Positions 7,613 through 63,095 are shown, counted from the first letter of the stretch. The stretch: 64,000 bases of DNA from Caldilineae bacterium (GCA_011176545.1 DUEN01000009.1:9510-73509), one strand, 5' to 3'. Translations and numbers: made by a program. The notes: a model not told the origin generated them from the letters alone.

Positions 7613-7621
7613 GAGGTGGGC

Positions 7622-24381: not shown

Positions 24382-26388
24382 ATGATGGAGAGCCGTGGTA
24401 TACACATAGGGGCACGTTATCGTAGGCTGGCTCCGATTGCTTTGGTCCTGATGATCGGCCTGCTGACTGCTTTGGCGGTACCCGGGCAGGCCTCGAGCCC
24501 GCAGGCGACGCCGATCCCGCTCACACAGGATGAGTTCTCCTCTATCGCGCCCCAGGGGTTCGGAGATCGTCACAATAGCTGGGCATGGTCGATGCAGTGG
24601 TGGAACGGTTACCTGTACGTAGGCACCAACCGGGCGTGGCATTGCGCCGAGGTCGCTGCCCTGACGAACATCTTCCCTGGGCTGGTGACATATCCACCGG
24701 ACGATCCGGACGTGGAATGTACCCCGGATCCTGAAGATCTCCCCTTACAGGCGGAGATCTGGCGCTGGTCGCCGGCGACTGGATGGGAGCGAGTGTATCA
24801 GGCGCCCGCGGATGTTCCGCTACAAAGCGGCAAGATGGTGGCCAGAGACGTCGGCTACCGGGGTATGACGGTCTTCCGCGAGCCGGATGGCACCGAGGCG
24901 CTTTACGTCACCGCCGTCAGCCCTCAGTTCATCTTCGAGGAGCTGACCGATGTGCCAGCCCGCATCCTGCGGTCAACCGATGGAGTGCACTTCGAGCCGA
25001 TCCCACAAGATCCGGGCACAGCTCTGGGGAACTTCCCCTTCAGCGTCTTCCGCAATCCTACCAGCTACAACGGACGGTTTTACGTCACGGGAGGCACGGT
25101 CCAGGGAAGTGGCGTGTTGCTGGAATCCGACGATCCGGCCGCGGGCAACGATAGCTTCCGCATCGTCTCGCCTCCAGGCATGATCGTCTCCGCGCTGAAG
25201 CCCTACAATGGGTACCTCTACGTGGGCGTGCGGGGGCTCTGGCGTGGCTACTCCATCGTTAAGACGGACGCCAGCGGAGATCCTCCCTATACCTTCACGC
25301 TGGTGGTGGAGAAGGGCGGATATCTCCGGCATGGTCGGAACCCCGAGGTGCTGAGCATGGAGATCTTCGACGGCTACCTGTACGTGGGTGGCAACGGTAT
25401 CTCCGTCGGCTCGATCGGCCCCGGCGCCGCTGCCGAGCTGATCCGCATCCATCCTGATGATTCCTGGGATCTCATCGTCGGCTATCCACGACTGACCCCT
25501 GATGGGTACAAATATCCGCTCAGCGGCCTGGAGGCTGGCTTCGGGAACCCGTTTAACGCCCATATGTGGCGAATGGCGGTGTATGATGGCGTGCTGTACG
25601 TGGGGACCTTTGACACCAGCACCACGCTCCGCAACGATCCTCAGCTCGGCGGATACGCGCAGCGATTCGCGGGGTTTGACCTGTATGCTTCTACGGACGG
25701 CATGCACTTCACGCCGGTGACCATGGACGGGTTTGGGGATGAGTTTAACTTCGGCGTACGAACCATGGCCTCCACGTCTGAGGGGCTATTCATAGGTACG
25801 GCTAATTACTACTATGGCCTGCAAATCTGGCGCGGCCAGAGCGGAGCTCCCCCAGCGTCAACCGAGACTCCAACCCCGACGCAGACCCCTGTCGCGGGAG
25901 AGGTCGCTGGGTGGGTCTTCCTTGACCTGAATGGGGATGGCCGTCGCGATCCGTATGCCGGGGAGACGACCGGTATCCCTGGTGTGACCCTGATCCTCCG
26001 TGATGCGGAGGGGAACGCCTTCACCACGCGAAGCACAAATCCCTCCGGGTGGTACGCATTCTCCAACGTGCCGCCCGGCATGTATACCGTGGAGGAGCAA
26101 CAGCCGCCTGGATACGTCAGCACCAGCCCGGATGTCGTCGCCATCGAGGTGCTTGCCGGAGGACAGCATATCGTGAACTTCGGCGAGATGCTCACCACCT
26201 CCACACCGACGGCGACGCCGCGCGATACGCCTACCGCGACGCCAACGCTGACACCAACGGCGACGCCAAGCAACACGCCCACCGCGACGCCGTCACCGAC
26301 GCCGACGGATACGCCCACACTTACCCCCACTGCCGGGCCCGTGGGAGAGGTCGGCTATGTGGTATACCTGCCGCTGCTGGCGAAGTGA
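24382..26388 (+). CDS. Repeat (probably beta-propeller) protein, paralogue 3; signal peptide; C-terminal SdrD-B/Cna-B-like domain, Thr/Pro-rich tail, terminal YLPLLAK
   Basis: GAAGGAGG RBS before ATG 24382. GFGDRHNSWAWSMQWWNGYLYVGTN. GWVFLDLNGDGRRDP...GWYAFSNVPPGMYTVEE. TPTATP repeats. Confidence 0.65.
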   Translation: MMESRGIHIGARYRRLAPIALVLMIGLLTALAVPGQASSPQATPIPLTQDEFSSIAPQGFGDRHNSWAWSMQWWNGYLYVGTNRAWHCAEVAALTNIFPGLVTYPPDDPDVECTPDPEDLPLQAEIWRWSPATGWERVYQAPADVPLQSGKMVARDVGYRGMTVFREPDGTEALYVTAVSPQFIFEELTDVPARILRSTDGVHFEPIPQDPGTALGNFPFSVFRNPTSYNGRFYVTGGTVQGSGVLLESDDPAAGNDSFRIVSPPGMIVSALKPYNGYLYVGVRGLWRGYSIVKTDASGDPPYTFTLVVEKGGYLRHGRNPEVLSMEIFDGYLYVGGNGISVGSIGPGAAAELIRIHPDDSWDLIVGYPRLTPDGYKYPLSGLEAGFGNPFNAHMWRMAVYDGVLYVGTFDTSTTLRNDPQLGGYAQRFAGFDLYASTDGMHFTPVTMDGFGDEFNFGVRTMASTSEGLFIGTANYYYGLQIWRGQSGAPPASTETPTPTQTPVAGEVAGWVFLDLNGDGRRDPYAGETTGIPGVTLILRDAEGNAFTTRSTNPSGWYAFSNVPPGMYTVEEQQPPGYVSTSPDVVAIEVLAGGQHIVNFGEMLTTSTPTATPRDTPTATPTLTPTATPSNTPTATPSPTPTDTPTLTPTAGPVGEVGYVVYLPLLAK

Positions 26389-51078: not shown

Positions 51079-51843
51079 TTAGACCTTGACCAGCATACCG
51101 TCATAAGCTACCTGGACGTTTTCGAACTCCTCGACGTAAGCTTCGAGCTCATCATGTGGGCGATTGTGGTGGTTGATGTGGGTCAGAATCAGGCGCTTCA
51201 CCCCTAGGTCGTCCTTCAAATGCAGCGCGTCGAGGACGTTGAGATGCTCGTTCCCCGATCTGTCGAAGAAGGGAGTATTGGCGATCAGTAAGTCAGCTCC
51301 CCGGATCAGACAGCGCGCCTGATGCGTGAGCTCCACGCTGCTATCGGAAAGGTAGATGACCTTAAAATCCTCGTAGTAGATGGCGAGCCCGAAGCAGGGT
51401 ACGCCGTGCAGGACAGCAAACGGGGTGATGAAGAAGCCGTCAAATCGGACGGCGACGCCCTGACGGCAGACTAGATGGAACCCCACCTGCTTTAAGCCCG
51501 CCAGTAATCCCTGCCGCTTCAGCCGCTGATGAAGCCCCTGCTCCACCAACAAGTCGACGCGCTCACCCCAGTACGCGAAGTCTACGATCCCGTTCACGTG
51601 GTCATAGTGTTCGTGGGTCAGGAAGATCCCATCGATATGCTCCACGCCATGCCTGGCCAGGAGCTCTCCGATGTGGGGAGGGGTATCCACCAGCAGCTCG
51701 TAATCCTGTAGCGAGAAGAGGATCGCGTTGCGCTCACGGATTAACTTGCCCCCCTGGGTCCGGGCCCGTACACAATGGGCACATCGACAGTTAATGGCAG
51801 GAATGCCCTCTGCGGCGCCTGTTCCTAAGAAGTGGATATACAT
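51079..51843 (-). CDS. PhnP-like MBL-fold phosphodiesterase, paralogue A (motifs intact)
   Basis: MYIHFLGTGAAEGIPAINCRCAHCVRAR (CxCxxC), FLTHEHYDHVNG (HxHxDH). Confidence 0.7.
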   Translation of the reverse strand: MYIHFLGTGAAEGIPAINCRCAHCVRARTQGGKLIRERNAILFSLQDYELLVDTPPHIGELLARHGVEHIDGIFLTHEHYDHVNGIVDFAYWGERVDLLVEQGLHQRLKRQGLLAGLKQVGFHLVCRQGVAVRFDGFFITPFAVLHGVPCFGLAIYYEDFKVIYLSDSSVELTHQARCLIRGADLLIANTPFFDRSGNEHLNVLDALHLKDDLGVKRLILTHINHHNRPHDELEAYVEEFENVQVAYDGMLVKV

Positions 51844-51942
51844 GATGGCATCCCCATATCGGCTGCCGAAGCCGTCCTTTGGATGACGCTGTAAAGGAGC
51901 CATGGTGACCGAGAAGATCTCATGCCAATCCCAAAGGGCTGC

Positions 51943-52707
51943 TCAGATCTCGACGGTCATCCCGTCGTACGCGACGCGCACCCCGTCGAAATTCTGCACG
52001 TAGGCTTGAAGCTCATCATGGGGCTTATTGCGATGGTTGATGTAGGTCAGGATCAGCTCGCCGGCCTGCACCTCTTCTTTAAGGGCGATGGCCTCCACCA
52101 CGGTGATGTGATCCTCCTTGGGCGGCTGGAACACCGGGGTGTTGACGATGAGCAGGTCGGCATACCGCATGAGACAGCGAGCGTAATTCGTCAGGCGCGC
52201 CGGCGTATCCGATGTGTAAACCACGCGCCGATCCCCTTCCTTGAGGGAGAACCCGAAGATAGGGACGTTCCGACGCACGGCGAAAGGTAGGATGGAGAAC
52301 TCACCGAAGTAGAGCGCCGCCCCAGGATAATAGGGGATATGGAACATCACCCGTTCCAGCCGGGCGGTCCAATGTTCCCGCTTGACGATCTTGAACAGGC
52401 GCTCCTCGGCCAGGAGGTCTAGCCGGTCCTGCCAGTACTCGAACTCCTTAATGCCGCCGACATGCTCATAGGCCGCGTGGGTGATCCAGATGCCCTCCAG
52501 CCGGCTCACCTCATAGCGGTTGATCATGTCGCGCACATCGGGGGGCGTGTCAACCAGCAGGTTGTAGCCCGGCAGTTCAAAGAGGATCGCATTGCGCTCA
52601 CGCGTTAACGGCGGGCCTTCCTTCCTCGCCCGCCGACAATGTTCACACTGACAGTTAATGGCCGGGATGCCTTCCGCGGCACCGGTGCCAAGAAAGGTGA
52701 TCTTCAT
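51943..52707 (-). CDS. PhnP-like MBL-fold protein, paralogue B (degenerate metal motif)
   Basis: MKITFLGTGAAEGIPAINCQCEHCRRAR. WITHAAYEHVGG stands in place of HxHxDH. Confidence 0.7.
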   Translation of the reverse strand: MKITFLGTGAAEGIPAINCQCEHCRRARKEGPPLTRERNAILFELPGYNLLVDTPPDVRDMINRYEVSRLEGIWITHAAYEHVGGIKEFEYWQDRLDLLAEERLFKIVKREHWTARLERVMFHIPYYPGAALYFGEFSILPFAVRRNVPIFGFSLKEGDRRVVYTSDTPARLTNYARCLMRYADLLIVNTPVFQPPKEDHITVVEAIALKEEVQAGELILTYINHRNKPHDELQAYVQNFDGVRVAYDGMTVEI

Positions 52708-52791: not shown

Positions 52792-53102
52792 CATCTCGCG
52801 ACAACTTACGCATAAAAGGGAGGAGGATATGTAGGCCAGCATACACTTCTGATCAACAGACTCCTCACCGCTCGCCTAGCCCACGTTCAGGAGTCGTACC
52901 CCTTTCGGCCGGATTCAGGCGGGCGGTGCCCTCAGGGGGCGGTTATAATGTTCTATAGGATGTGCCTTTGCCATCCCGATTTGCAAATATTCATTATTTG
53001 AAGGCTCTCACGGCTCCCTTGGTGGGCAGGCTTGGGACGCAGGTATAAGCCCGGACGATTGGGTGGATATGGAAGCGCTACGAGGCTCTGTCGGCAGTCC
53101 CA

Positions 53103-53161: not shown

Positions 53162-56100
53162 ATGAAGTCCGCGTATAGCCGCATTTGGGTCCTCATACTT
53201 CTGGTGATGATGCTCCTCATCCCGAGCGGGCGGGCCTCCGCTTCGCCCGACGTGCAGGCTGGCGCCTCGGCCCCCGTGGATATCGTGCTGCTCATCGACG
53301 ACTCGGGCAGCATGAGCGACTGGTGGGCGGATGGGCGACGGCCGCCGAATGATCCCGAGGGACTGCGTCATAGCGCCGCGCGGCTGTTCATCGATCTGGC
53401 CCGCCCCGGAGATCGCATCGCCGTGATCTCCTTCCATACCACGGCAACCGGCTATGGCGCTGCTGCAGAGGGCGAATTTGACGTCATCTCCGATCAGGCC
53501 TCCCGGGATCAGCTCAAGGCCGCCATCGTGCAGCCCACGGAGCCGGAAGACCCCATGGAGCGGCTGACCGATATGCGCCGAGGGCTGCGCATGGCGCAGG
53601 ATCTCCTGAAGCGTAATCTTTCAGGTAATCGACAGTTCATCATCTTCCTGACGGATGGCCGCCCCTATCCCACCGACCAGCGGCCGGAATTATTCCAGGT
53701 CATCTCCGAGCTCGGCCAGGCGGGGATTCCCATCTTCCCCATCCTCCTGGGAGGCGATGCCGACACTAAAGTCGCGAACCGGATGGCGCTGGAGACCCAT
53801 AGCGTCGTTCAGCAGGTCGATAGCCCTTCCGACCTGTTGCGCGCTTATGCCACGATCTATTCCTATATCCAGCCTAACCGATACGTGGACGTCCTTGATC
53901 TGATAGGCGGTCAGATCGGCACGGTGAAGACCAGCGAGGAACAAGGTGTCACGGAGCTCAGCATCGTCCTGCCCAAGGCCCGCGATGCCTCCGCCGCCTT
54001 CGCCGACTTAACCCATGACGGCACGTCGATCCTGGGAAGCGATCGGCTGGACAACGGGGCCACCATCACCCGCGTCGTTGATGAGCATTATGAGATGATC
54101 ACCATCTCGCATAACAGTCCGCTCGTGGGGGAATGGGTGGCTCGCGCGCTGCAGGCGGTGGGCTCTAGTGGCCTGGTCGTCGCTGAATCGATGACCACCA
54201 TTCAGCTCCTCTATCCCCAACCCGCCGCGGACGCCGATTCCACGGCCGCCCCTCGGTATTATCCGGTGGGTAAGCCGGTCTTCCTGGGCGCGACCGTGCA
54301 GAGCGCCGATGTCCTGATGACGGGTCTGCCCCTCGTGGCGCGGGTCGGGGGCGTGCAGTACCCGATGACCACCGAGGGGCTGACGAAGGATGGCTCCCTG
54401 TATTGGGCCATCATCCCCGCACAACCGGGGACGGAGCCTGGATCGCGTACGCGCGTGCAGATCCAGATCGGCGATCAGATCACGCCCCTGCGGTTGCGTA
54501 AGGAATTCGTCCTGGAGGCGGGCGAGTTCCCGCCCCTGATCGTTGACAGCCCTACGGAACGATCGGATGGGGTGTTGGAAGAGGGCAGGCTGCTCCTGCG
54601 TGTCCACTTCGAAGGGGCTGAGCCTCCCCAGGATGCCCGGGTGGAGGCCATCATACAGGACATGAATACGGGGGATATCGCCCGTATCCTCCTCGCCTGC
54701 GCCGGCGGTGTGTGTGAGGACAAGAGCTTCACGCCGACGCAAGGGCGGCAGTATCACGTCCTCTTCCTCGCCACGGCTACCACCGCCGATGGCATCGTAT
54801 ACAACGACTTCGCGGAGGGCAGCCTGACCATGCGGGACGCGCTGCGTCTGGAGTCGCTGCCCTCCATCCTCGATCTGGGCCGTGTCCCTCTTTACCAGGA
54901 CACCGTCGAGCGCGAGTTGACGTTATCCGCCTACACCGAGCAGCCCTTCCAGCTTAAGGCGCGCGTGGAGCTCCAGTCAGCCACGCCAGGGGTGCGGCCT
55001 GGACAGTTAACGGTCAGCCTGGCGCGACCCACCCACGTGGGCGGCAACCGATACAAGACGCTGCTCACCCTCAGCGGCTTTGACCAGCTAGCGCCTGGGC
55101 AATACGCTGGCACGGTCACTTTCGATGCCGGGAAGGACCTGGACGTGCAGCCGTCCAACGTGCCGCTCAAGTTCAGCATCCCCGAGCCGGAGATCCGCCT
55201 GACGATGCCGGGCTCCGTTGACCTGGGCGAGATCCGACAGCCGCGTGAGCCGCGGGAGTTCCAGATCACGGCGGAATTCACCGAAGGCACGGCGTCGGAG
55301 ATCGAGGGGACATTGACCAACTTGACGTTGAACGGCCAGCCGGTGGGCACCGATCACTTCACCGTGCTGGTCGGTCAGCCTATCCCGCGGGGGGAGGAGG
55401 GGCACACTTTCACGATCCCCGTACGGCTCACTGCCATCGCCCGGCCGCCCGCAGGTGTCTATCGCGGAGACATCATCTTCACCTCGCCTTCCGGGCTTTC
55501 TATTGAGCCGCGCCGGATCCAGGTCGTGTTCAACGTCCCCCAGCCCAAGGTGATCCTCTCCCTCGAAGGGGACGTGTTGGACTTCGGCGATGTCACCGAT
55601 CTGAGCCAGCCGACCAGCGTGCCGATCTACATGGAGCTCAAATATATCGATGGCCCACCGCGCATCGACGTCGCGCTCTCGGATGTGCGGCATTCCGGCG
55701 GCAGCGTCCAGGCCGCGAGCGCCTTGGGTGTTCGCACGGGCGTGATCCAGCAGGAAGGGGAGGGCTATCGGATGCCCCTGCTGCTCAGCGCTGAGGGGAA
55801 GGTCCCTCCCGGGGTATATCAGGGCACCATCGTCCTGCGTGCCGCTGAAGGGGTGGTGATTCAGCCGTCCAAGATCAGCTTCACCGTCCGTCAGTTGACC
55901 ACGATGCAGGCGCTGGGCAAGTGGCTAGCCCCTGTAGGGTCGTTCTTCCGCACCTGGTTCTGGCCGTTACCCCCGATTCGGATCACCGGCTTTGTGGGTT
56001 GGCTAGTCTTGCTGGTGCTCATCAACACGGGACTGCGTTTGCGGCCCGCGGCGCCCCAGGAAGGCGGCGTGGTCATAGCTGACGCGTCGGGTGAGATGGC

Positions 56101-56431
56101 CACGGTGCCCCGCGATCGGCCCTTATACCTGGTGATGGGGAGCGAGGGCGTCGGCTTCAGCACCAGGCAACAGGATCGGGTGCGCGCGCTGGCCATCGTC
56201 GATATGGAGCAGAGGGTCACTGGGAGTTCCACCCGGGCGAGCTGGCGGGCCGTCCTGAAGAGCAACCCCATCGCGCCGACGCAGGTGCGCGTGTCCTACT
56301 GGCGTCCGGAGACCGGGCGTTGGCGCCTGGTGGGCGAACAGGGGCACGTGCTGAGCCCGGGGACACGCTTCCGTGTTCGACTGGTTGAGAGCGGAGACAA
56401 GTACTACTTCCGGTACATGGATGAGGGATGA
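53162..56431 (+). CDS. Exported von Willebrand factor A (VWA) domain protein with a long beta-rich region, C-terminal transmembrane anchor and ~130-aa cytoplasmic tail
   Basis: Signal peptide IWVLILLVMMLLIPSGRASA. MIDAS motif VLLIDDSGSM (53297-53311), FLTDGRP. Transmembrane helix ITGFVGWLVLLVLINTGL (about 55981-56034). Confidence 0.8.
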   Translation: MKSAYSRIWVLILLVMMLLIPSGRASASPDVQAGASAPVDIVLLIDDSGSMSDWWADGRRPPNDPEGLRHSAARLFIDLARPGDRIAVISFHTTATGYGAAAEGEFDVISDQASRDQLKAAIVQPTEPEDPMERLTDMRRGLRMAQDLLKRNLSGNRQFIIFLTDGRPYPTDQRPELFQVISELGQAGIPIFPILLGGDADTKVANRMALETHSVVQQVDSPSDLLRAYATIYSYIQPNRYVDVLDLIGGQIGTVKTSEEQGVTELSIVLPKARDASAAFADLTHDGTSILGSDRLDNGATITRVVDEHYEMITISHNSPLVGEWVARALQAVGSSGLVVAESMTTIQLLYPQPAADADSTAAPRYYPVGKPVFLGATVQSADVLMTGLPLVARVGGVQYPMTTEGLTKDGSLYWAIIPAQPGTEPGSRTRVQIQIGDQITPLRLRKEFVLEAGEFPPLIVDSPTERSDGVLEEGRLLLRVHFEGAEPPQDARVEAIIQDMNTGDIARILLACAGGVCEDKSFTPTQGRQYHVLFLATATTADGIVYNDFAEGSLTMRDALRLESLPSILDLGRVPLYQDTVERELTLSAYTEQPFQLKARVELQSATPGVRPGQLTVSLARPTHVGGNRYKTLLTLSGFDQLAPGQYAGTVTFDAGKDLDVQPSNVPLKFSIPEPEIRLTMPGSVDLGEIRQPREPREFQITAEFTEGTASEIEGTLTNLTLNGQPVGTDHFTVLVGQPIPRGEEGHTFTIPVRLTAIARPPAGVYRGDIIFTSPSGLSIEPRRIQVVFNVPQPKVILSLEGDVLDFGDVTDLSQPTSVPIYMELKYIDGPPRIDVALSDVRHSGGSVQAASALGVRTGVIQQEGEGYRMPLLLSAEGKVPPGVYQGTIVLRAAEGVVIQPSKISFTVRQLTTMQALGKWLAPVGSFFRTWFWPLPPIRITGFVGWLVLLVLINTGLRLRPAAPQEGGVVIADASGEMATVPRDRPLYLVMGSEGVGFSTRQQDRVRALAIVDMEQRVTGSSTRASWRAVLKSNPIAPTQVRVSYWRPETGRWRLVGEQGHVLSPGTRFRVRLVESGDKYYFRYMDEG

Positions 56432-56447
56432 GGTAGGGGAGTGTCCT

Positions 56448-59045
56448 ATGGCAGGACTGACACGCATTTCACCCAATGGTGATCAACCGACGAAGCCCAC
56501 GCTTCGTCCGACCCTGGTGTTGGGACTGGGGGGTACGGGCGTAGACGTGCTGCGCTTCTTTAAGCGGCGACTGCGGGAGGCTTGGGGGCTTGGCTCCGCG
56601 GAGGAGATCCCCGGGATCATCCAGCTCCTGGGCGTGGATACCATGCCCTGGGCGAATCTGCCCGGCCAGGAGTACCTGCATCGGCATGAATACGCGTACA
56701 TCGGCGGCTATAACGCCTCTCAGGTCCTGCGCCATCTGGACAATCACCCTACCATCAAAGCCTGGTGGAACTGGCCACCGGAGATGGTGCCCCTGGGGCA
56801 GATCCATAGTGGCGCCCGGCAGATCCGGTGCATCGGCCGGCTTTCCTTCTTCCGCCGCTATCGCACGTTCTGGAGCCATCTGGAGCCTAAGCTAAGCCGT
56901 ATGGCGGCCGTGGCCACCATCGAGGAGACGGAGAATCGCGGCTATCCGGTCATCCGGGAAGGCGGTATCCGCCACATCTACATCGTCACCTCGCTCTGTG
57001 GCGGCACCGGCAGCGGCATCTTCCTGGACGTGGCACACAAGCTCCGCCATCTCTTCGGCGAACAGGCCATCATCACTGGCATCCTGGGCATGCCTTCCAT
57101 CTTCCTGGAAGAGTTGGATAGCGATCTCCAGAAGCGGCGCATCCAGGCGAACGCCTACGCGGCGTTAAAGGAGCTAGACGCGTTCCAGAGCGGTCGCGAT
57201 TTCGTGGTCCAGTACCCCGGCGAAGATCCCATCACGGTCAGCCGTCCGTTCGACCGCATCTATCTCATCGAGCGACGCAACATCGCTGGCGAGGTCCTGG
57301 ACACGCTGGACGATGTCAAGCAGATGATCGCCCACCAGATCTTCCTGGAGACCGTTTCCCACATTGGGTCCCGGATATGGTCGTACGACGTCAACATCTC
57401 CCAGGAACGACACCGCGACGGGACCAGCATGTTGGCCTATAGCTCCTTCGCCACGTCTGCATTGGTGGTGCCAAAGGAGCGGATGCTGGAGTATTGTGCG
57501 CTTAAGTATGCCGAGCGGCTGCTCGACCTGGGGTTGCTGCGCGAGTTGAAGCCCGAGGATAAGAACGCCCTGATGGCGGAAGCCCAGTTGGTGATCACCT
57601 TCGTGCGGGATACGATCATGGGACGTCGGGAGCGTCAGACCCCCGCAACGACGTACCCGGGGAGCGACATGGAGGAGTCGTTCGAAGAGGAAGAGGAGCT
57701 GTTCGAGGAGTTTGAGGACGAGGAAGAGGAGGAGACCTGGGAGCAGGAGGAACAGCAGCCGCTGGCGACCTGGAACGAGGCCGCATATGATCGGCTGTTG
57801 TTAGACCTGCGCGATCAGATCCATCAGATCGTGCGCCAATATGGCCTGCGCGGCGCGCACTTCTTCGTGGACACCCTGTATCAGTCGCTCCTGGCGCAGC
57901 GCGAGCAGGCGCGGGAGGATGAGGATAACCTGACGCGGCGTATCGAGGCGTTGGAGATCAACCTCGCCCGGGTGCGCGATCCATTCATCGTCAACCTCCT
58001 CAACTTCTGGCCCTTCGACATGCTCTTTGTGGACAACCTCAAGAGGGCGACCCGACGCGAGCGGGCGCTCTTGAGCGAGCAGATGATGCGCCTGAGCCGT
58101 GCCCGTACCCGGGTGCGGACCATGCATGATGTATGGGATCAGCTCATCCCCGTCGCTGAAGGGCTGCGTTGGGAGATCGAGAACCGCATCGGCGATATGG
58201 AGGCCGCGCGCGAGAAGGGGATCATCGAGCCGTTGGGCCTCTTCTTCCGCCTAGGCGGGCGGGATACCTGGGAGAACGCCTACGCCTTGACCAGCGAGGC
58301 CGTGGACGATCGGTATATCGTCAACGATTTCGAGCGGCGCAACTGGGATCGCGTGCTGCGACATCGCCTGGAGGAGTCTTTAAGTCGGCTCGCCGAGGAT
58401 CCGGTGATCTTCCGCGTTGAGGTTGAGACCAGTGAGCAGCGGGCGTTCGGCGAGACGGTGTACGCCAAGTCGCTTAAGCTCGTGTCTCACCTTCCGGATC
58501 ATGAGGATCAGCCGCTCACCTGGTTTGACATCCGCGATCGGCTCCTGCGGCATAGTCGCTATGAGGTGGTAGATGTCTCGATTCAGGATGAGGAGTTCCA
58601 CTTCGCCCGCATCCTGGCGACCAATCGGGCGCTCCTGCAAGAGCGGGTCAAGCAGTTGTTCGCCCGGTGCCATCCCTTCTGGCGATACGACCTGGACCGG
58701 GGCGGGTTGGACGAACAGGATCTGGAGCATACCATCCTGGTGGGCGTAGACGATGCCGTTCGCCATATGAAGCTCTACGATGACCTGTTGCGGGATTACA
58801 GCGAATATGAGCGGGTCTCCACGGGGGATCCGTTGCGCATCGAAGCGTGTAAGATCAGTCACGGCTTGCCGATCATGTACGTCGAAAATATCGAGGTCCT
58901 TTATCGTCACTATCGGGAGTTCGTGACGCGTGGCCCCGTCCACCTTCGGATGGATTGGCAGGATCTACCCGAGATCGTCCTGGCCGAGGCCGTAGCTCGT
59001 CCCGCGGATGGTCCCCATGAGCCGCAACGTCCAGGCCTGGCCTGA
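56448..59045 (+). CDS. Tubulin/FtsZ-superfamily-like GTPase (Tubulin_2-type), cytoplasmic, with an internal poly-acidic insert
   Basis: GLGGTGVDV (56523-56540, T1-like loop), LLGVDT, SLCGGTGSGIFLD (tubulin signature GGTGSG at 57000-57017). ATG 56448 follows GAGGTAGGGGA. Confidence 0.65.
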   Translation: MAGLTRISPNGDQPTKPTLRPTLVLGLGGTGVDVLRFFKRRLREAWGLGSAEEIPGIIQLLGVDTMPWANLPGQEYLHRHEYAYIGGYNASQVLRHLDNHPTIKAWWNWPPEMVPLGQIHSGARQIRCIGRLSFFRRYRTFWSHLEPKLSRMAAVATIEETENRGYPVIREGGIRHIYIVTSLCGGTGSGIFLDVAHKLRHLFGEQAIITGILGMPSIFLEELDSDLQKRRIQANAYAALKELDAFQSGRDFVVQYPGEDPITVSRPFDRIYLIERRNIAGEVLDTLDDVKQMIAHQIFLETVSHIGSRIWSYDVNISQERHRDGTSMLAYSSFATSALVVPKERMLEYCALKYAERLLDLGLLRELKPEDKNALMAEAQLVITFVRDTIMGRRERQTPATTYPGSDMEESFEEEEELFEEFEDEEEEETWEQEEQQPLATWNEAAYDRLLLDLRDQIHQIVRQYGLRGAHFFVDTLYQSLLAQREQAREDEDNLTRRIEALEINLARVRDPFIVNLLNFWPFDMLFVDNLKRATRRERALLSEQMMRLSRARTRVRTMHDVWDQLIPVAEGLRWEIENRIGDMEAAREKGIIEPLGLFFRLGGRDTWENAYALTSEAVDDRYIVNDFERRNWDRVLRHRLEESLSRLAEDPVIFRVEVETSEQRAFGETVYAKSLKLVSHLPDHEDQPLTWFDIRDRLLRHSRYEVVDVSIQDEEFHFARILATNRALLQERVKQLFARCHPFWRYDLDRGGLDEQDLEHTILVGVDDAVRHMKLYDDLLRDYSEYERVSTGDPLRIEACKISHGLPIMYVENIEVLYRHYREFVTRGPVHLRMDWQDLPEIVLAEAVARPADGPHEPQRPGLA

Positions 59046-59062
59046 ACCGGGAGAGAGGAATC

Positions 59063-62000
59063 ATGGGGGTGGCTAGAAGTAATCGGGCGGCGCTCATCGG
59101 TCTGGGGGGATGGGGATGCCGGGTATTGGCCCACCTCTGGCCTCGGCTTCGTCAGGCTGATGAGCGTCGATCGCTCGTCACGCCTAACCTCACCCCGATC
59201 CATTATACGGTCAGCTTTGCCCTCGTCATGCCAGATGGCGAGGGCTCTCTTGCCATCGCGCGGCCTCGCCCGGGACGTTGGGATACCCCCTCATTCTCCG
59301 AGACGCCCTGGCACGCTTTATCCGACCTCTCCGATGGTGATCGCCATAGCCGCGCCTGGTGCCAGGACACGTATCGGCGCCTTCAGGAGACGATAGAGAC
59401 CCTGGAAACGTATACGGCGCCGCTGGATAAATCCCCGGTCGATCGCCAGGGCATGCTGCACATCCTGGCCGCCCACGAGTCGGCCATCGCCCGGCAGTTG
59501 GCTTGGATCATGGACCAGGCGCGCGTGGATCGCGGAGAGCCCACGGCGGAGATCGCCAAGCTCACCGTGTACATCCTGGCTTCGTTGGCTGAGGATTTGG
59601 CCTCAGCCCTGGTCTGGCCGTTGGCCGCGATGATCCGGCAGGCGGTGGGGAACTACACTCCTATCGAGGTGATCGGCCTCTTTCAGGTGGATACCTTCGC
59701 CGCATCGCCGGAGCGAGCGTATGAGTTAGCGAGCATCCATCTGGCCCTGCAGGAGATGGCCGCCTTCGAGTCGAGCGATCCGGAGCAGCAGAAGGCCATC
59801 CGCGCGGCGCTCCCCCGGGCTCAATGGCTGGAGGCCCTGGGTACGCACCCGTTGGACTTTCGTTATCTCCTCGGCCGCGAGAAAGTAGGGGGGACGATCG
59901 CCGGGGGTGAGGGCGAGATCATCACTATGGTGGGTAACGCGCTGGAGGCGTTCCTGCTCTCGGATGCTGATCGCTTCCTCAGCGAGCGATTGGCGCCGGA
60001 TCTGCCCATGCTGCAGGAGTCGGCGGGATACAGCAGCCTGGGGGCCGCATCCGTTTACGTCCCCGTCGAGCAGATGCGCGCTCGCAGTCGCGATCAGGTA
60101 CGGCTGCGGCTTCTACGCGACCGGCTGTTGGCTCCGTTAACGCCCGAGCAGGTGCAGCAGATCGACGAGCTGGCCCAGACGTTGGCTGAGGATGTGCTCT
60201 CCGTGGTACGGCTGGAGCAGGCCCTGATCGGCAGCGGACCTATCGAGTTAGACACAGGGATCGCCAGCCTGCGCGGGAGGACATCCGGCCCCTTCGTTCC
60301 CGTCCGCCTGAGCGAGAGCGAGCTCCGACCGCCGCTTAGCGGCACCGAGGGTCTGGGTCCCATCGCGCGAGTGGAGTTCATCCAGCAACATTTTGATCAA
60401 CTGGAGGGTGCGCGCCTTCCCCGCTGGCGACAGGAGCTGCTGGCCCGGGCCGGGGTGATCCCCATAGAGCCCCCGGAGGAGGACCTGCAGGAGGCGTTAG
60501 GAGAGGAGCCGGAAGGTGATCAGCCGTTATCTCCCAAAGCCTATGTCCCCAGGCAGACAGCGGTGAACCATCTTCTGGAAGAGTTAGACCGTTTCCTGCT
60601 GGATTTGATGCGGGAGGGGGAGCGTGGGGGGATCCGCATGGCGCTGCGTTGCGCGGAGCGGGTGGCGGACCTGGTGCAACGGGCCAGCACGGGGCTTGCC
60701 TCGCAACGCAGTGAGATGGCCATCCCGCCGGCTTTGCGCAATCTCAGCACCTCGACCGAGGTGAACCGCCTGACCCGCATCATGGGGTGGTGGAGTCAGG
60801 TCCAGGGCCATCCGGGTTGGGTTTTCCTGTTCTCGCTGATGCTCACCCTGGTAGCGGCGACTGCGAGCGTCCGGGCGACCGGCATGGGGCCCGGAGAGCT
60901 GCAAGCCGCTGGCTTGGTGCGCTTGGTCATCAGCGCGGTGATCGTAGGCGTGGCCATCGGGGCGGGCGTTATGTCCCTCGCCCGACGCCAGCTTGACCAG
61001 TTGGCCGATCGGCTTCTGCGTGCCAAGGCCGCCGTGATCAATCGGCATCTCAACGATCTCGTGTACGAGCTGGTCGTGAACGCTCATACCTCGCTTCATG
61101 AGCAGGTCCTGGCCCGGGTTCACTCCCTACAACAGACGTTGATGGAGCTGGAACGTGAGCAGGCGCAGTTAGCGCGCGCGCTGGCGCGGCCTATGATCAC
61201 GGACGCCTCCTTTGTACGGGCGGCCATTCCGGATCGCACCATTTATGATGGCATCTGGGCGCGAGCGCAGCGATGGATCAGCGGCAGCGTATCCCCTCGC
61301 TTGTGGACCAATGGAAATGGCCCTCAGGACGAGCTGCAAGCGGCTTGGTGGGATACGCTAGAAGGCGTTCCCGCCGAACCGACGCTGGCTCATCTGGATC
61401 GGCGCCCCGCTCTGAGCTATACCGAGGATGCGGGCACCCGCACGCCGCTCACGGAGGCAATCTCGGGGGCCATCGCTCGCTACGCGGCGATGGTGTCTCA
61501 GCCCTATCTACCCTCCGGCACCAACGTGGAGTCCTCGTTGGAACGATTGGCCCGCTCCCGCGATGGTGAAGGGCTGCGGGTGGATGCTGGATGGCAGTTG
61601 GACGATCTGTGTGTGCGCGCTCGTCCCTTCATCGGCCTCGAGGAGACGGAGCGAGAGCTTGTCAATATAGTGAGCATTGACCTCGCGGCGGTGCCACATA
61701 CCATGAGCCAGTGGCTGGAGCGGGAAACGGGCGCGGCGTTACACGTCCATCCGGTCCCGTCGTCGGACCCGTTCTCGATCATCGTGGTGCGCACACTGCA
61801 TGGTCTGCCGGTGGAGTGCCTGCCTCAACTGCGTCATTGCGCGGCCGCGTTTGAGGAGCTGAGCCCTGAGGAGCGCAGTCGGCTGGTTGTCAGTCCGACG
61901 CTGGCAGGCGAGCCTCCCGCGCTGGAGGCTGAGGGGCTGGCGGACGGGGAGACGACGTTGATCGCAGAGGTTGAGCCTGCCGCCTCGGAATCGGCGGGTA

Positions 62001-62104
62001 GCGAGGAAGGGACACAATCGTCAGCCGATGTTGAGGTGTCCCCGCGGCAACCGGTAGAGGATGAGGCCCCCACTGAGACGACTTCTCCATCGTCAGAGGT
62101 TTAA
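59063..62104 (+). CDS. Degenerate paralogue of the tubulin-like protein, with two transmembrane helices and an acidic Ser/Glu-rich tail
   Basis: GLGGWG (59099-59116). VYILASLAEDLASALVWPLAAMIR aligns gap-free with IYIVTSLCGGTGSGIFLDVAHKLR of the upstream protein. Transmembrane helices at about 60814-60870 and 60911-60982. Confidence 0.55.
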   Translation: MGVARSNRAALIGLGGWGCRVLAHLWPRLRQADERRSLVTPNLTPIHYTVSFALVMPDGEGSLAIARPRPGRWDTPSFSETPWHALSDLSDGDRHSRAWCQDTYRRLQETIETLETYTAPLDKSPVDRQGMLHILAAHESAIARQLAWIMDQARVDRGEPTAEIAKLTVYILASLAEDLASALVWPLAAMIRQAVGNYTPIEVIGLFQVDTFAASPERAYELASIHLALQEMAAFESSDPEQQKAIRAALPRAQWLEALGTHPLDFRYLLGREKVGGTIAGGEGEIITMVGNALEAFLLSDADRFLSERLAPDLPMLQESAGYSSLGAASVYVPVEQMRARSRDQVRLRLLRDRLLAPLTPEQVQQIDELAQTLAEDVLSVVRLEQALIGSGPIELDTGIASLRGRTSGPFVPVRLSESELRPPLSGTEGLGPIARVEFIQQHFDQLEGARLPRWRQELLARAGVIPIEPPEEDLQEALGEEPEGDQPLSPKAYVPRQTAVNHLLEELDRFLLDLMREGERGGIRMALRCAERVADLVQRASTGLASQRSEMAIPPALRNLSTSTEVNRLTRIMGWWSQVQGHPGWVFLFSLMLTLVAATASVRATGMGPGELQAAGLVRLVISAVIVGVAIGAGVMSLARRQLDQLADRLLRAKAAVINRHLNDLVYELVVNAHTSLHEQVLARVHSLQQTLMELEREQAQLARALARPMITDASFVRAAIPDRTIYDGIWARAQRWISGSVSPRLWTNGNGPQDELQAAWWDTLEGVPAEPTLAHLDRRPALSYTEDAGTRTPLTEAISGAIARYAAMVSQPYLPSGTNVESSLERLARSRDGEGLRVDAGWQLDDLCVRARPFIGLEETERELVNIVSIDLAAVPHTMSQWLERETGAALHVHPVPSSDPFSIIVVRTLHGLPVECLPQLRHCAAAFEELSPEERSRLVVSPTLAGEPPALEAEGLADGETTLIAEVEPAASESAGSEEGTQSSADVEVSPRQPVEDEAPTETTSPSSEV

Positions 62105-62301
62105 CCGCTTGAGACGCAGCGATTGAGCATATTCCTCAGACATTGCGCTGCTTCGTACACACGCCCGAGAGTCAGCCCGGAGGAGGACCTCCAGGCCGTT
62201 GTGAATACCGCAGTTTACCGAAAACGATTTGACTTCGCAGGCGAAAACCCCGTAGCTCGCACCTTCCGTCGGGTCGTTGGCTCTATCAACCCGTTATCAA
62301 G

Positions 62302-62330
62302 TTGCTCCGCGCCCCTCGCCGTGGTATAAT
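62302..62330 (+). promoter_or_regulatory. Sigma-70-type promoter with extended -10 (TTGCTC-17-TGgTATAAT) for crp-pyrK-pyrD
   Basis: TTGCTC 62302-62307, 17-nt spacer ending in TGG, TATAAT 62325-62330. Confidence 0.6.
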
Positions 62331-62393: not shown

Positions 62394-63095
62394 ATGGATA
62401 AGCTGCAGTTTGATATGGTACAGATTGTCAAATCTGTACCATTGTTTATGTCGCTCACCAAGAAAGACTGGGAAGATGTGGCACATATGCTGGTCGGCCG
62501 ATGCTATCCCAAGGACGCTTACATCTTCCACGCAGGCGATCCCCCCGATGCCCTGTACATCGTCTGGACAGGCCAGGTCAAGATCCTCCGTCATTCCGAG
62601 GAGGGACGGGATATCGTCCTAGATGTGATCGGCCCTGGTCACATGTTCGGCGAGATGGCCGTGTTCGATGGCATGCCCTATAGCGCCAGCGCCCAGGCCA
62701 TGGAGGATGTAGCCCTCGTGGCCATCTCCCGCCCCGATTTCTTCCGTCTGTTGGAGCGCTACCCCGGCGTCTCCTTGGCCGTGATCAGCGAGCTAAGCCG
62801 GCGCTTACGTAACGCCAGTGACCTGGTACATAGCCTCGCCGTCGAGCGCGTGGAACGCCGCATCGCCCGTATGCTCCTCAAACTGGCGGCCAATAGCGCC
62901 AGATATCGGGATAATGGCTTGGTCATCGACCTCCCGTTGACCAGGCAGGACATCGCTGATATGACCGGCACCACGGTGGAGACGGCGATCCGGGTCATGA
63001 GCCGGTTCCGCAAGGAAGGGCTCATCACCACCGAGCGCGGCCGCGTGGTCGTCCTCGACCCGGAGGGGCTTCGCGCCGTCGCAGAGGAGCGTTGA
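62394..63095 (+). CDS. Crp/Fnr-family transcriptional regulator
   Basis: cNMP-binding-like N-terminus (FHAGDPPDALYIVWTGQVKI, FGEMAVFDG). HTH RQDIADMTGTTVETAIRVMSRFRKEGLI. Confidence 0.85.
   Translation: MDKLQFDMVQIVKSVPLFMSLTKKDWEDVAHMLVGRCYPKDAYIFHAGDPPDALYIVWTGQVKILRHSEEGRDIVLDVIGPGHMFGEMAVFDGMPYSASAQAMEDVALVAISRPDFFRLLERYPGVSLAVISELSRRLRNASDLVHSLAVERVERRIARMLLKLAANSARYRDNGLVIDLPLTRQDIADMTGTTVETAIRVMSRFRKEGLITTERGRVVVLDPEGLRAVAEER

Follow-up and report, generated by a model that had tools for sequence, protein, structure and literature searches.

FtsZl1 and its vWA operons were defined by Makarova and Koonin in 2010 (Biol Direct 5:33; PMC2875224), who described operons in which FtsZl1 accompanies a vWA protein that is secreted or membrane-bound and has an intact MIDAS, also in Bacillus, Clostridium and Deinococcus, and who listed the triplet Cagg_1317/1316/1315 of Chloroflexus aggregans (1017, 763 and 1083 aa) in Additional File 5. 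The distribution is patchy, and among the Chloroflexi genera that we searched for in the 2010 lists only Chloroflexus (C. aggregans) was found. Since FtsZl1 is normally found in addition to a conventional FtsZ, the same authors argued that the module is not division machinery and proposed a role in membrane remodelling; the authors' response adds that every characterised member of the FtsZ/tubulin superfamily forms filaments (PMC2875224). Subsequently, paired tubulin-domain genes accompanied by extracellular vWA proteins in Firmicutes were read as conflict systems by Kaur et al. (2020; eLife 9:e52696; PMC7159879), who propose a conflict role for tubulin-vWA modules in multicellular bacteria. 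Literature searches retrieved no experimental work on the FtsZl1-vWA family.

The locus examined in this study lies within a stretch of 64,000 nucleotides from a Caldilineae bacterium (DUEN01000009.1), hereafter the window. It is a triplet of the already known FtsZl1/vWA type, and the novelty implied in the original prediction was overstated, as VWA-FtsZl1 operons, including the same triplet in C. aggregans, were known in 2010 and the Firmicutes pairs in 2020. Two features were not found in that literature: the FtsZl1 paralogues that lack the signature and are embedded in the membrane form a coherent family (81 clusters or more at E<=1e-30), and the triplet occurs by itself, without DO-GTPase or GAP1 genes.

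Organisation and conservation of the locus

The module (53162-62104) consists of three closely spaced + strand genes, g1, g2 and g3 (Table 1), separated by 16 nt (g1/g2) and 17 nt (g2/g3), with a purine-rich ribosome-binding site in both gaps (GGGGAG; GGGAGAGAGGA); an alternative start of g2 is the GTG at 56373. The ORF coordinates agree with the gene number, strand, spacing and flanking gaps (454 and 289 nt) originally reported. The 454-nt gap is a divergent intergenic region, and in three relatives (L003, L009 and L010) a TATAAT, with a comparable GT/TCTGTAA(A)G stretch after it, is likewise found 5' of g1. At the other end, where a new promoter had been placed at 62302, a promoter-like element delimits the module on the 3' side; a consensus scan missed it because its -35 match is only 3/6. 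The nearest neighbours of the triplet in the window are an MBL-fold hydrolase and the Crp-family regulator, the latter 3' of the module at 62394-63095. The three genes form an operon of the FtsZl1-vWA class that is complete in itself.

Table 1. Features of the module, with positions counted from the first nucleotide of the window.
Feature	Residues	Position	Strand	Basis or remark
Candidate -10 element TATAAT of the module's own promoter		52945..52950	+	consensus match only; weak
g1, surface VWA/MIDAS protein	1089 aa	53162..56431	+	ORF call, Pfam VWA, topology
g1 VWA domain	40-222	53279..53827	+	Pfam PF00092, E=1e-9
g1 MIDAS DxSxS	46-50	53297-53311	+	inside VWA domain
g1 three tandem ~120-aa repeats	572-691, 693-811, 813-924	54875..55933	+	membrane-proximal ectodomain
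g1 TM helix and cytoplasmic tail	936-954; 955-1089	55967..56428	+	hydropathy peak 1.99, then RLR
g2, cytosolic FtsZl1 / Tubulin_2 GTPase	865 aa from ATG	56448..59045	+	
g2 tubulin-like GTPase domain	23-359	56514..57524	+	motif positions
g2 T1 loop GLGGTG	26-31	56523-56540	+	motif position
g2 T4 signature GGTGSG	185-190	57000-57017	+	within SLCGGTGSG, 182-190
g2 candidate T7-like loop DVNISQER	314-321		+	T7 assignment inferred
g2 acidic disordered linker, then long helical-hairpin stalk	395-433; 444-608	57630..58271	+	AF2 secondary structure, pLDDT
g2 stalk tip	511-528	57978-58031	+	hydrophobic, aromatic: PFIVNLLNFWPFDMLFV
g2 C-terminal alpha/beta domain, common to g3	615-840	58290..58967	+	AF2 model; hhalign
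g3, integral-membrane FtsZl1 paralogue without GTP-binding motifs	1013 aa	59063..62104	+	
g3 N-terminal tubulin-like pseudo-GTPase domain	7-390	59081..60232	+	Tubulin_2 29.7 bits; AF2
g3 degenerate T4 region SLAEDLAS	174-181	59582-59605	+	SLAEDLASA in place of T4 signature
g3 TM hairpin	585-603 and 621-639	60815..60979	+	hydropathy; ~17-aa external loop; tip of helical stalk
g3 C-terminal domain, homologous to that of g2		61424..61858	+	hhalign; AF2 model low-confidence here
Promoter-like TTGCTC-17 nt-TGgTATAAT		62301..62329	+	read from sequence; predicted promoter of downstream Crp-family gene

The co-occurrence of the three genes was complete, their order and orientation being retained in 16/16 related loci for which sufficient sequence was available, among them relatives with 20-30% identity, and the arrangement is therefore not due to chance. 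All triplet loci with a named source belong to Chloroflexota, and the flanking genes vary between lineages.

The three gene products

g1 is exported, and its C-terminal anchor holds the protein on the outer face of the cytoplasmic membrane. Its N-terminal signal peptide has its h-region at 8-26 and an ASA cleavage motif. The protein displays a VWA domain for ligand binding, with the metal-dependent site (MIDAS) intact, on a stalk of which the three ~120-aa repeats form part. The DxSxS of the MIDAS, the downstream Thr and the Asp of [T/S]DG are kept in 15/15 g1 homologues in which the N-terminus is present, and a g1 homologue occurs in every triplet examined. The signal peptide, VWA domain, intact DxSxS motif, single TM helix and tail described originally were all recovered, while the approximately 700 aa of beta-rich repeats held in part: the family profile of each of the three repeats matches the other two (i-E 3e-16, 3e-18, 7e-10 and 2e-8) and a PG.Y.G motif closes each, whereas residues ~240-570 gave no match to the three repeat profiles. 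Conservation of the 135-aa tail, which starts with RLR, is limited to close relatives (column conservation 0.03 outside them), so that coupling through a structured cytoplasmic tail is unsupported; the TM hairpin of g3 is a better candidate for the transmembrane link.

The assignment of g2 to the FtsZ/tubulin fold was confirmed by its match to Pfam Tubulin_2 (PF13809; 214 bits, E=3.6e-63) and by its AF2 model (mean pLDDT 72), for which the top Foldseek matches in the PDB were all tubulins, gamma-tubulin or CetZ at probability 1.00, with low TM-scores (0.30-0.45 normalised to target, RMSD 6-16 A). The GGTGSG signature and GLGGTG loop noticed originally are both present, and zero TM helices are predicted, as claimed. 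Across 31 homologues, residues G26, G28, G29, G31, G185-G188, G190, N316, E320 and R321 are invariant. Apart from the core strands of the GTPase, the stalk tip has the sole hydrophobic peak; a WP[FL][SD][LM] motif there is retained in most orthologues. Altogether, g2 is a cytosolic tubulin-fold GTPase with intact G-loops, acidic linker, helical-hairpin stalk and C-terminal domain. It may also be the polymerising GTPase originally envisaged; nevertheless, neither a catalytic loop of T7 type nor an activation domain like that of tubulin could be established in g2, nor was T6-H7 found in FtsZl1 by Makarova and Koonin (PMC2875224), and polymerisation is therefore not assured.

As judged from its sequence, g3 is a full-length paralogue of g2 with a two-helix membrane hairpin and with the nucleotide-binding loops lost, in accordance with the original description. 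It is related to g2 by BLASTP (E=1e-4) and by hhalign, both over the core domain (97.9% probability, E=5e-13) and between the C-terminal domains (g3 ~788-932 with g2 ~683-824; 91.5% probability, E=8.6e-7), and it matches Tubulin_2 at 29.7 bits (cutoff 27), as do 19/32 diverse family members on their own. Profile comparison thus ties g3 to g2, but the structural tie is weak, Foldseek matches to tubulins reaching probability 0.9-0.99 with E=0.04-0.2. In the AF2 model the N-domain mostly has pLDDT 70-90 and is followed by helices at 556-605 and 615-708, the model being poor past residue 710; the hairpin is placed by this model at the stalk tip, in the same predicted stalk position as the hydrophobic tip of g2 (AF2, hydropathy). 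The family comprises 192 clusters at 50% identity (E<=1e-3), or 81 at E<=1e-30, and reaches ~20% pairwise identity with the ~1000-aa ORF intact. Its full-length members have no T4 motif where T4 would lie, the central TM hairpin is present in almost every one, and a set of invariant residues is particular to the family, e.g. E177, N292, E295, G327 and P334; topology is kept across homologues of the module genes. g3 is a maintained protein, not a product of decay.

Proposed role and competing explanations

The explanation that we consider best, although tentatively and with somewhat less than even confidence, is that g3 tethers g2 at the membrane beneath g1, in an envelope- or membrane-organising role within the Chloroflexota clade. 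g3 would both tether g2 to the membrane and be its partner subunit, with pairing via their homologous tubulin-like and C-terminal domains, so that a GTP-binding and a non-binding subunit would come together at the membrane, where the hydrophobic stalk tip of g2 might add a peripheral contact. GTP binding and hydrolysis by g2 would govern self-assembly of the membrane-bound complex. g1 would be joined to it within the membrane, more likely via the g3 hairpin than via its own unconserved tail, and ligand binding outside would thereby be connected to GTP-dependent assembly inside. If true, the module would constitute a GTP-regulated transmembrane assembly, and the role favoured in this clade would be organising or remodelling of the membrane or cell envelope, as Makarova and Koonin propose.

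Counted in support of the envelope role were the fully kept flank synteny between two relatives (L005 and L007), the position of the AlaRS gene, which precedes the triplet upstream in L003 as in the window, the divergence of g2 at a rate as slow as that of flanking housekeeping genes (81% identity vs 78% for AlaRS; 88% vs 78-88% for flanks), the absence of a PADLOC match for g1, g2 or g3, and the lack of any detected enzymatic effector domain in the triplet. Counted against it were the defence-type neighbourhoods of FtsZl1-vWA modules on a Meiothermus megaplasmid (BrxL, Swt1-HEPN, DUF1156) and a Nostoc plasmid (CHAT and caspase genes), the filing of related tubulin-vWA modules under conflict systems by Kaur et al., and the patchy distribution. 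Against the mechanism stand the statistically weak structural match of g3 to tubulin (best E=0.04) and its poor model past residue 710, the T7-type loop and activation domain that could not be established in g2, and the unconserved g1 tail.

Several of these observations bear on a conflict system, in which the extracellular VWA domain would sense an invader or contact with non-kin, the signal would pass through the membrane, and the tubulin-like pair would assemble as a threshold switch or effector, leading to arrest or death of the cell. The plasmid neighbourhoods and patchy distribution would fit such a system, as would the IetA/TRIP13-like AAA+ and HerA-like ATPases adjoining divergent Chloroflexota triplets, a Type ISP restriction gene inserted beside the triplet in L007, the faster evolution of g1 and g3 than of g2, a weak Foldseek likeness between g3 and alpha-pore-forming toxins (AhlB, MakA), for which we hold the stalk and hairpin responsible, and the link of Firmicutes tubulin pair and vWA systems to multicellular lineages including Chloroflexi made by Kaur et al. 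(PMC7159879). We nevertheless regard it as rather unlikely: PADLOC matched no triplet gene, DO-GTPase and GAP1 are missing and the neighbours are instead an MBL-fold hydrolase and a Crp regulator, flanks in the clade are housekeeping genes with L005/L007 synteny retained, in the Chloroflexota clade compared the divergence of g2 matches that of housekeeping genes and g1 shows no hypervariability, no toxic enzymatic effector was detected, and the toxin-like matches lack significance and are of a kind that long helical hairpins typically give. Somewhat less improbable, but still on the unlikely side, is a module without filaments, g2 being a GTP-dependent switch or dimer, more dynamin- or mitofusin-like than cytomotive, and g3 its membrane-embedded regulatory partner. 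T6-H7 and C-terminal polymerisation elements were not found in FtsZl1 by Makarova and Koonin (PMC2875224), TM-scores to tubulins are low, and the layout of GTPase, stalk and tip resembles dynamin-like proteins and mitofusins; yet the faint matches of g3 to MxA, MxB and SynDLP (probability 0.15-0.28) are not significant, the invariant N316/E320/R321 loop lies just past the core helix, in the expected T7 place, and the characterised superfamily members all form filaments according to the authors' response.

A third explanation makes g1 an adhesin for substrate, sheath or neighbour cell, with g2/g3 driving its position or clustering from inside. It is modelled on integrins or myxobacterial focal adhesions, and a possible likeness of g1 to VWA adhesins and integrin I-domains was counted for it, together with the strictly conserved, intact MIDAS, carried on a long stalk with repeats that could reach across the wall, and the anchoring of g1 next to a membrane-bound cytoskeletal-type pair. 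The unconserved g1 tail and the absence of linked motility genes from every locus examined make it improbable, as does the occurrence of FtsZl1-vWA operons in Bacillus, Clostridium and Deinococcus, where we know of no gliding motility in the carriers. Finally, loss of the GTP-binding loops and the fastest divergence in the triplet (59-61% identity where g2 has 81-88%) could portray g3 as a functionless decaying duplicate in an incidental three-gene adjacency. Against this, the ~1000-aa ORF is intact in 81 or more clusters (50% identity, E<=1e-30), with family-specific invariant residues and the TM hairpin, and it always lies directly 3' of g2; such conservation leaves decay effectively refuted, with a minimal probability.

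Comparison with known systems

In the operons described in 2010, as here, FtsZl1 lies directly 3' of a MIDAS-intact secreted or membrane vWA gene and membrane proteins complete the operon, and Cagg_1317/1316/1315 have the same arrangement as g1-g2-g3. However, the third gene was there labelled COG0576 GrpE and its FtsZl1 paralogy went unrecognised (P0239, a distant g3 relative, gives the same GrpE match in Pfam), and many of those operons have protein kinases, P-loop GTPases and OmpA-like proteins, of which the triplet has none. The GAP1-N2 DO-GTPase systems of Kaur et al. resemble the triplet in that Firmicutes combine two tubulin-domain and coiled-coil genes with a TM-anchored extracellular vWA protein, and in being tied to multicellular lineages and to the membrane. 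The DO-GTPase, the GAP1 genes and the FNIII-repeat protein are all missing from the triplet, and Kaur et al. limit the tubulin theme to Firmicutes and Actinobacteria; the passages considered make no mention of a tubulin copy without GTP motifs or embedded in the membrane.

Bacterial dynamin-like proteins and mitofusins likewise combine a GTPase, a helical-hairpin stalk and a hydrophobic paddle or TM hairpin at its tip, an architectural analogy only, their GTPase fold being unrelated to the tubulin-like fold of g2. Paired paralogues are common among them. Adjacent superfamily paralogues, probably paired and with unequal nucleotide chemistry, may also be compared with alpha/beta-tubulin and BtubA/BtubB. 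In alpha/beta-tubulin GTP is hydrolysed at one site only, whereas in g3 nucleotide binding as a whole, not just hydrolysis, appears to be lost; moreover, g3 is an integral membrane protein, and g2 as well as g3 has a long stalk and an additional C-terminal domain. Reliance of a soluble tubulin-fold GTPase on a separate membrane-bound partner, as proposed for g2, recalls FtsZ with its tethers FtsA, ZipA and SepF, which are unrelated to FtsZ, whereas the proposed tether g3 is a paralogue of the GTPase itself.

Operon layout and genomic surroundings

ORF calling placed three large genes at exactly the positions given for them in the original prediction, in the order surface VWA/MIDAS protein gene (g1), FtsZl1/Tubulin_2 GTPase gene (g2) and gene for a membrane-embedded paralogue of the latter (g3). 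Spacers of 16 nt (g1/g2) and 17 nt (g2/g3), each with a purine-rich ribosome-binding site, separate the genes, and the module is flanked by gaps of 454 nt upstream and 289 nt downstream, with a divergently oriented MBL-fold gene as its upstream and a Crp-family regulator gene as its downstream neighbour. The G+C content is unchanged across the module, and an Rfam scan of the window returned no match.

Two palindromic elements were found, one on each side of the module. Ahead of g1, at 34 nt from its start codon, is a stem-loop with a perfect 10-bp stem and a 3-nt loop; it is not followed by a T-run and is not kept in the matching leaders of four related loci (L003 and L009-L011). A perfect 12-bp inverted repeat, flagged by a terminator scan, falls within the first 50 nt of the Crp-family gene and could be an operator for that regulator itself.

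Other features of the window were recorded alongside the module. Two giant ORFs form a PUFA-synthase-like polyketide synthase pair, the larger with the domain order enoyl-reductase (NMO)-KS-AT-ACP-KR and the smaller with KS-AT-ACP-DH and a fused 4'-phosphopantetheinyl transferase. In a long plus-strand gene run, two ORFs with no Pfam match are followed by one with SdrD_B/SpaA-type surface-protein domains, and the three may constitute a cell-surface gene cluster. Two MBL-fold paralogues in tandem, immediately upstream of the module, have the N-terminal motif FLGTGAAEGIPAINCxCxHCxRAR in common; the metal-binding HEHYDH is kept in one and replaced by HAAYEH in the other (Pfam Lactamase_B_2), so that by their motifs they look like another active/degenerate paralogue pair.

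Coordinates of the module and of other features recorded in the window
Feature	Position	Strand	Description
Polyketide synthase pair	173-13180	+	ORFs, 2479 and 1854 aa
ORF without Pfam match	18611-20842	+	743 aa
ORF without Pfam match	21986-24301	+	771 aa
SdrD_B/SpaA-type ORF	24382-26388	+	668 aa
MBL-fold paralogue	51079-51903	-	HEHYDH
MBL-fold paralogue	51943-52707	-	HAAYEH
Stem-loop	53105-53127	+	GGGGTTCAGC-GCC-GCTGAACCCC
g1	53162-56431	+	ORF, 1089 aa
g2	56448-59045	+	ORF, 865 aa
g3	59063-62104	+	ORF, 1013 aa
Extended -10 promoter-like element	62301-62329	+	Precedes Crp-family gene
Crp-family gene	62394-63095		
Inverted repeat	62415-62442	+	ATGGTACAGATT-GTCA-AATCTGTACCAT

Anatomy of the GTPase, its membrane paralogue and the surface protein

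The assignment of g2 to the FtsZ/tubulin fold, proposed in the original prediction, was borne out by profile and structure searches. The protein matches Pfam Tubulin_2 (PF13809), the family equated with FtsZl1 (Santana-Molina et al., 2023), over residues 23-359 with 214.4 bits (curated cutoff 27), and the top 50 Foldseek matches of its AF2 model in the PDB are all tubulins, gamma-tubulin or CetZ, at probabilities of 0.98-1.00 over ~290-385 aligned columns and with modest TM-scores (0.3-0.45 relative to target). The glycines of the T1 loop (GLGGTG, 26-31) and of the T4 region (SLCGGTGSG, with CGGTGSG at 184-190 and GGTGSG at 185-190) are invariant across 31 homologues, and a weak PF00091 match in Pfam coincides with the T4 region. 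After the core helix, an invariant N316/E320/R321 loop, with pLDDT <50 in the model, occupies the place expected for T7, the catalytic loop that together with a C-terminal activation domain completes the active site in the polymers of this superfamily; a clear S7-S10 domain was not recognised in g2, and T6-H7 was likewise not identifiable in FtsZl1 proteins (Makarova & Koonin, 2010; PMC2875224). No solved relative emerged when the PDB was searched by sequence with the g2-family profile, where CetZ was the best match from the tubulin family (E=0.5, confined to the T4 loop), and neither g2 nor g3 had a match in NCBIfam.

In the AF2 model of g2 (mean pLDDT 72), a Rossmann-type GTPase domain ending at ~391 is followed by an acidic disordered linker (395-433), a long helical hairpin (444-509 and 527-608) and a C-terminal alpha/beta domain (615-840), which matches the FtsZl1 architecture of an FtsZ-like domain at the N-terminus, a long coiled coil and a C-terminal domain. 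The tip of this stalk hairpin (511-528, PFIVNLLNFWPFDMLFV) is the sole hydrophobic peak outside the core strands, and its aromatic character is kept in most orthologues.

Several comparisons support g3 as a homologue of g2. By BLASTP, g3 156-338 aligns with g2 163-346 (E=1e-4), with weaker collinear matches at the N-terminal G-loop and the C-terminal domain, and in profile-profile comparison of the two families (hhalign) the core domains align at 97.9% probability (E=5e-13) and the C-terminal domains at 91.5% (E=8.6e-7). As neither the N-terminal ~155 residues nor the stalks gave significant hhalign alignments, it is the T4-to-H8 core together with the C-terminal domain that carries the case for paralogy. 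The window protein itself is barely above the Pfam Tubulin_2 threshold (29.7 bits, cutoff 27); 19 of 32 diverse g3-family members match Tubulin_2 independently, and the g3 profile matches a canonical FtsZl1 protein from Meiothermus. At the place of the T4 signature of g2, g3 reads SLAEDLASA, whose Glu is invariant in its family, and G[GA][TS]G[STA]G is absent at this position from all full-length members. Judged from its sequence, g3 is a tubulin-superfamily homologue, but not a GTP-binding member.

The two transmembrane helices predicted by hydropathy in g3 (585-603 and 621-639) lie at the stalk tip of an AF2 model (mean pLDDT 62) with the same domain order as g2, to which a transmembrane hairpin has been added; both large domains would thus be cytoplasmic, with ~17 residues facing outward. 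The earlier description of g3 as a paralogue of g2 that had lost the signature and carries two transmembrane helices stands. Foldseek gave no match for the g3 model below E=1e-3: tubulins were aligned at probabilities of 0.9-0.99 over ~320-345 columns with an RMSD of 8-9 A, yet at E=0.04-0.2, and the alpha-pore-forming toxins mixed among the matches reflect, we think, the long helical hairpin of the model. An exhaustive HMMER scan, needed because a g3-profile re-search of a word-indexed protein database found no new members, delimited a family of 192 clusters at 50% identity at E<=1e-3, or 81 at E<=1e-30, with the central hairpin in nearly all full-length members. A family of this size, consistently devoid of the T4 motif and almost universally provided with the hairpin, argues for a maintained, specialised pseudo-GTPase, and we rejected the reading of g3 as a decaying copy.

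In g1, the VWA domain (Pfam, residues 40-222) carries a complete MIDAS of the integrin I-domain type DxSxS...T...D (D46-x-S48-x-S50, a downstream Thr and the Asp of [T/S]DG), kept in 15/15 homologues with the N-terminus present. Hydropathy indicates an N-terminal signal sequence, a single transmembrane helix (936-954) and a 135-residue tail starting RLR, a topology that recurs among homologues. The beta-rich repeats attributed earlier to this protein do exist, but they amount to three tandem modules of ~120 residues (572-691, 693-811 and 813-924) that were detected by mutual recognition of family profiles and not by BLASTP self-comparison, while residues ~240-570 gave no match to these profiles. 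The tail is conserved among close relatives only and is low-complexity-like in distant homologues. Its candidacy as an FHA-like phosphopeptide-binding domain was rejected, given no Pfam support at E<=10 and no conservation in distant homologues.

Strict synteny of the triplet in three Chloroflexota classes

Around homologues of g2 and g3, whether close or distant, all examined neighbourhoods had the g1-g2-g3 order. A census by profile covered 18 loci and recovered the full triplet in 16/16 with enough sequence, the other two being cut by contig ends, which answers positively whether the three genes co-occur in other genomes. A scan of GTDB genomes found 11 loci, all in Chloroflexota (classes Anaerolineae, Caldilineae and Chloroflexia); this count is a lower bound, as the scan started from a 12-sequence g3 alignment and two peptide patterns that limit its sensitivity. 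Our results thus show that in three Chloroflexota classes the triplet is an autonomous unit with strict synteny.

Flanking genes vary between lineages. The flanks of the related loci L005 and L007 are fully syntenic, and the window and L003 both have an AlaRS gene upstream of the triplet. Amino-acid identity between the window and L003 is 78% for AlaRS, 81% for g2, 68% for g1 and 59% for g3; between L005 and L007 it is 78-88% for the flanking genes, 88% for g2, 66% for g1 and 61% for g3. Synteny and identities point to a chromosomal module that would have been inherited vertically.

The most distant g3-profile matches also lie in triplets, sometimes with extra downstream genes. In divergent triplets, further co-oriented genes follow g3 (L019, 11103-15788; L021, 8225-10057; L001, 11057-14203), namely one for a protein of 144-179 aa and then lineage-specific ones, such as, in L019, one for a HerA-like ATPase of 949 aa and, in L001, one for a RyR-domain protein; the same position is occupied in Chloroflexus aggregans by Cagg_1314 and Cagg_1313 (Makarova & Koonin, 2010, Additional File 5; PMC2875224). 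The window has none of these genes after g3, nor any fourth conserved gene accompanying its triplet.

A vWA / tubulin-like / hypothetical triplet is also present on the Meiothermus taiwanensis plasmid pMtWR-220 (locus L023, 1-16921), flanked on one side by DUF1156, Swt1-family HEPN and ATP-binding genes and on the other by genes for BrxL, a wHTH protein, a transposase and an exonuclease, surroundings that look like a defence island. Its third gene was rejected as a g3 equivalent, given the lack of a transmembrane helix and an E of 0.41 with the g3 profile, and it does not extend the signature-less paralogue beyond Chloroflexota. Separately, the sole FtsZl1-like match among 50,697 phage records was MT836542.1 7204-7935 (27% identity, E=2e-13), part of a human faecal contig of 9.8 kb that is recorded as 'Bacteriophage sp.' and carries no annotation.

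Possible roles and comparison with known systems

FtsZl1 proteins form one of the branches that have diverged most within the tubulin superfamily, and they occur in many bacterial phyla and in archaea. Their function was stated as unknown in a 2011 review, and our literature search found no experimental study of the family sixteen years after its description, in line with the original prediction. The roles proposed, from genomics alone, are mutually incompatible: membrane remodelling (2010) and biological conflict (2020).

Our analyses show, at the level of predicted features, a strictly co-inherited set of a MIDAS receptor outside the cytoplasm, a tubulin-fold GTPase in the cytosol whose G-loops are intact, and a membrane-embedded paralogue without them. 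In such a set, g3 may tether g2 to the membrane through the domains common to both; the transmembrane hairpin of g3 corresponds in position to the hydrophobic stalk tip of g2. GTP turnover by g2 would then control assembly of the complex, and g1 would be coupled inside the membrane, with the hairpin of g3 a more probable link than the variable tail of g1 itself. One referee of the 2010 paper (PMC2875224) had asked by what means a tubulin-like protein of the cytoplasm and a vWA protein beyond the membrane could act together; membrane coupling by g3, a membrane-embedded pseudo-GTPase, would be a concrete and testable reply to this topological objection. It is a speculative and rather unlikely extension that g2 and g3 form an obligate membrane-embedded tubulin-superfamily heterodimer, of GTP-binding and nucleotide-free hairpin subunits, polymerising at the inner membrane face and coupled mechanically or allosterically to the extracellular receptor. 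If true, the three genes would constitute a bacterial counterpart of integrin-cytoskeleton coupling built on a tubulin-like scaffold and reducible to three genes.

As to the role of the module in this clade, we favour a cellular one, in the membrane or envelope, because its inheritance looks vertical, g2 evolves slowly and the neighbours are housekeeping genes, and because neither an effector enzyme nor, at E<=1, a PADLOC-DB v2 match for g1, g2 or g3 was found. A serious rival is that the triplet is a conflict system, as FtsZl1-vWA modules lie among BrxL, HEPN and DUF1156 genes on the Meiothermus megaplasmid and, on a Nostoc plasmid, next to genes for CHAT and caspase proteins, IetA-like or HerA-like ATPases adjoin some divergent Chloroflexota triplets, and the FtsZl1 family is patchily distributed. 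Kaur et al. (2020; PMC7159879) described DO-GTPase/GAP1-N2 systems, including Firmicutes with two tubulin+coiled-coil genes and an extracellular TM-anchored vWA protein, and read them as conflict systems of multicellular bacteria. Of the two genes that define these systems, that for the DO-GTPase (a TRAFAC P-loop GTPase) is absent at the module, g1-g3 having no domain match to a P-loop GTPase, the flanking genes encoding an MBL-fold hydrolase and a Crp regulator, and none being called in the triplet neighbourhoods of the related loci L001-L007; that for GAP1 (GAP1-N2/M/C domains) appears to be absent too. The module was consequently not filed under this family.

Whichever its role, the Chloroflexota triplet is the smallest self-contained form seen, with one surface receptor, one GTPase and one inactive membrane-anchored paralogue and without kinases, accessory GTPases or variable effectors, and this minimal composition makes it a practical system for reconstitution. 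The finding announced by the original prediction is real and its anatomy accurate, but its kind was already published and computationally defined: Makarova & Koonin (2010; PMC2875224) described the operonic link of FtsZl1 with secreted or membrane-bound vWA proteins with an intact MIDAS, and proposed a membrane-remodelling system. What is new here is the recognition of g3 as a conserved membrane-anchored pseudo-GTPase paralogue, together with the autonomy and strict synteny shown for the triplet and the lack of conservation shown for the g1 tail. The window module agrees with the FtsZl1-vWA operon in its adjacency, g1 lying 16 nt upstream of g2 and encoding a signal peptide, a TM anchor and a MIDAS. 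In Additional File 5 of the same paper, Chloroflexus aggregans carries Cagg_1317 (vWA, 1017 aa), Cagg_1316 (FtsZl1, 763 aa) and Cagg_1315 (1083 aa), the last labelled COG0576 GrpE, a match that one distant g3 relative also gives in Pfam; the arrangement of these three genes is the same as that of the window triplet.
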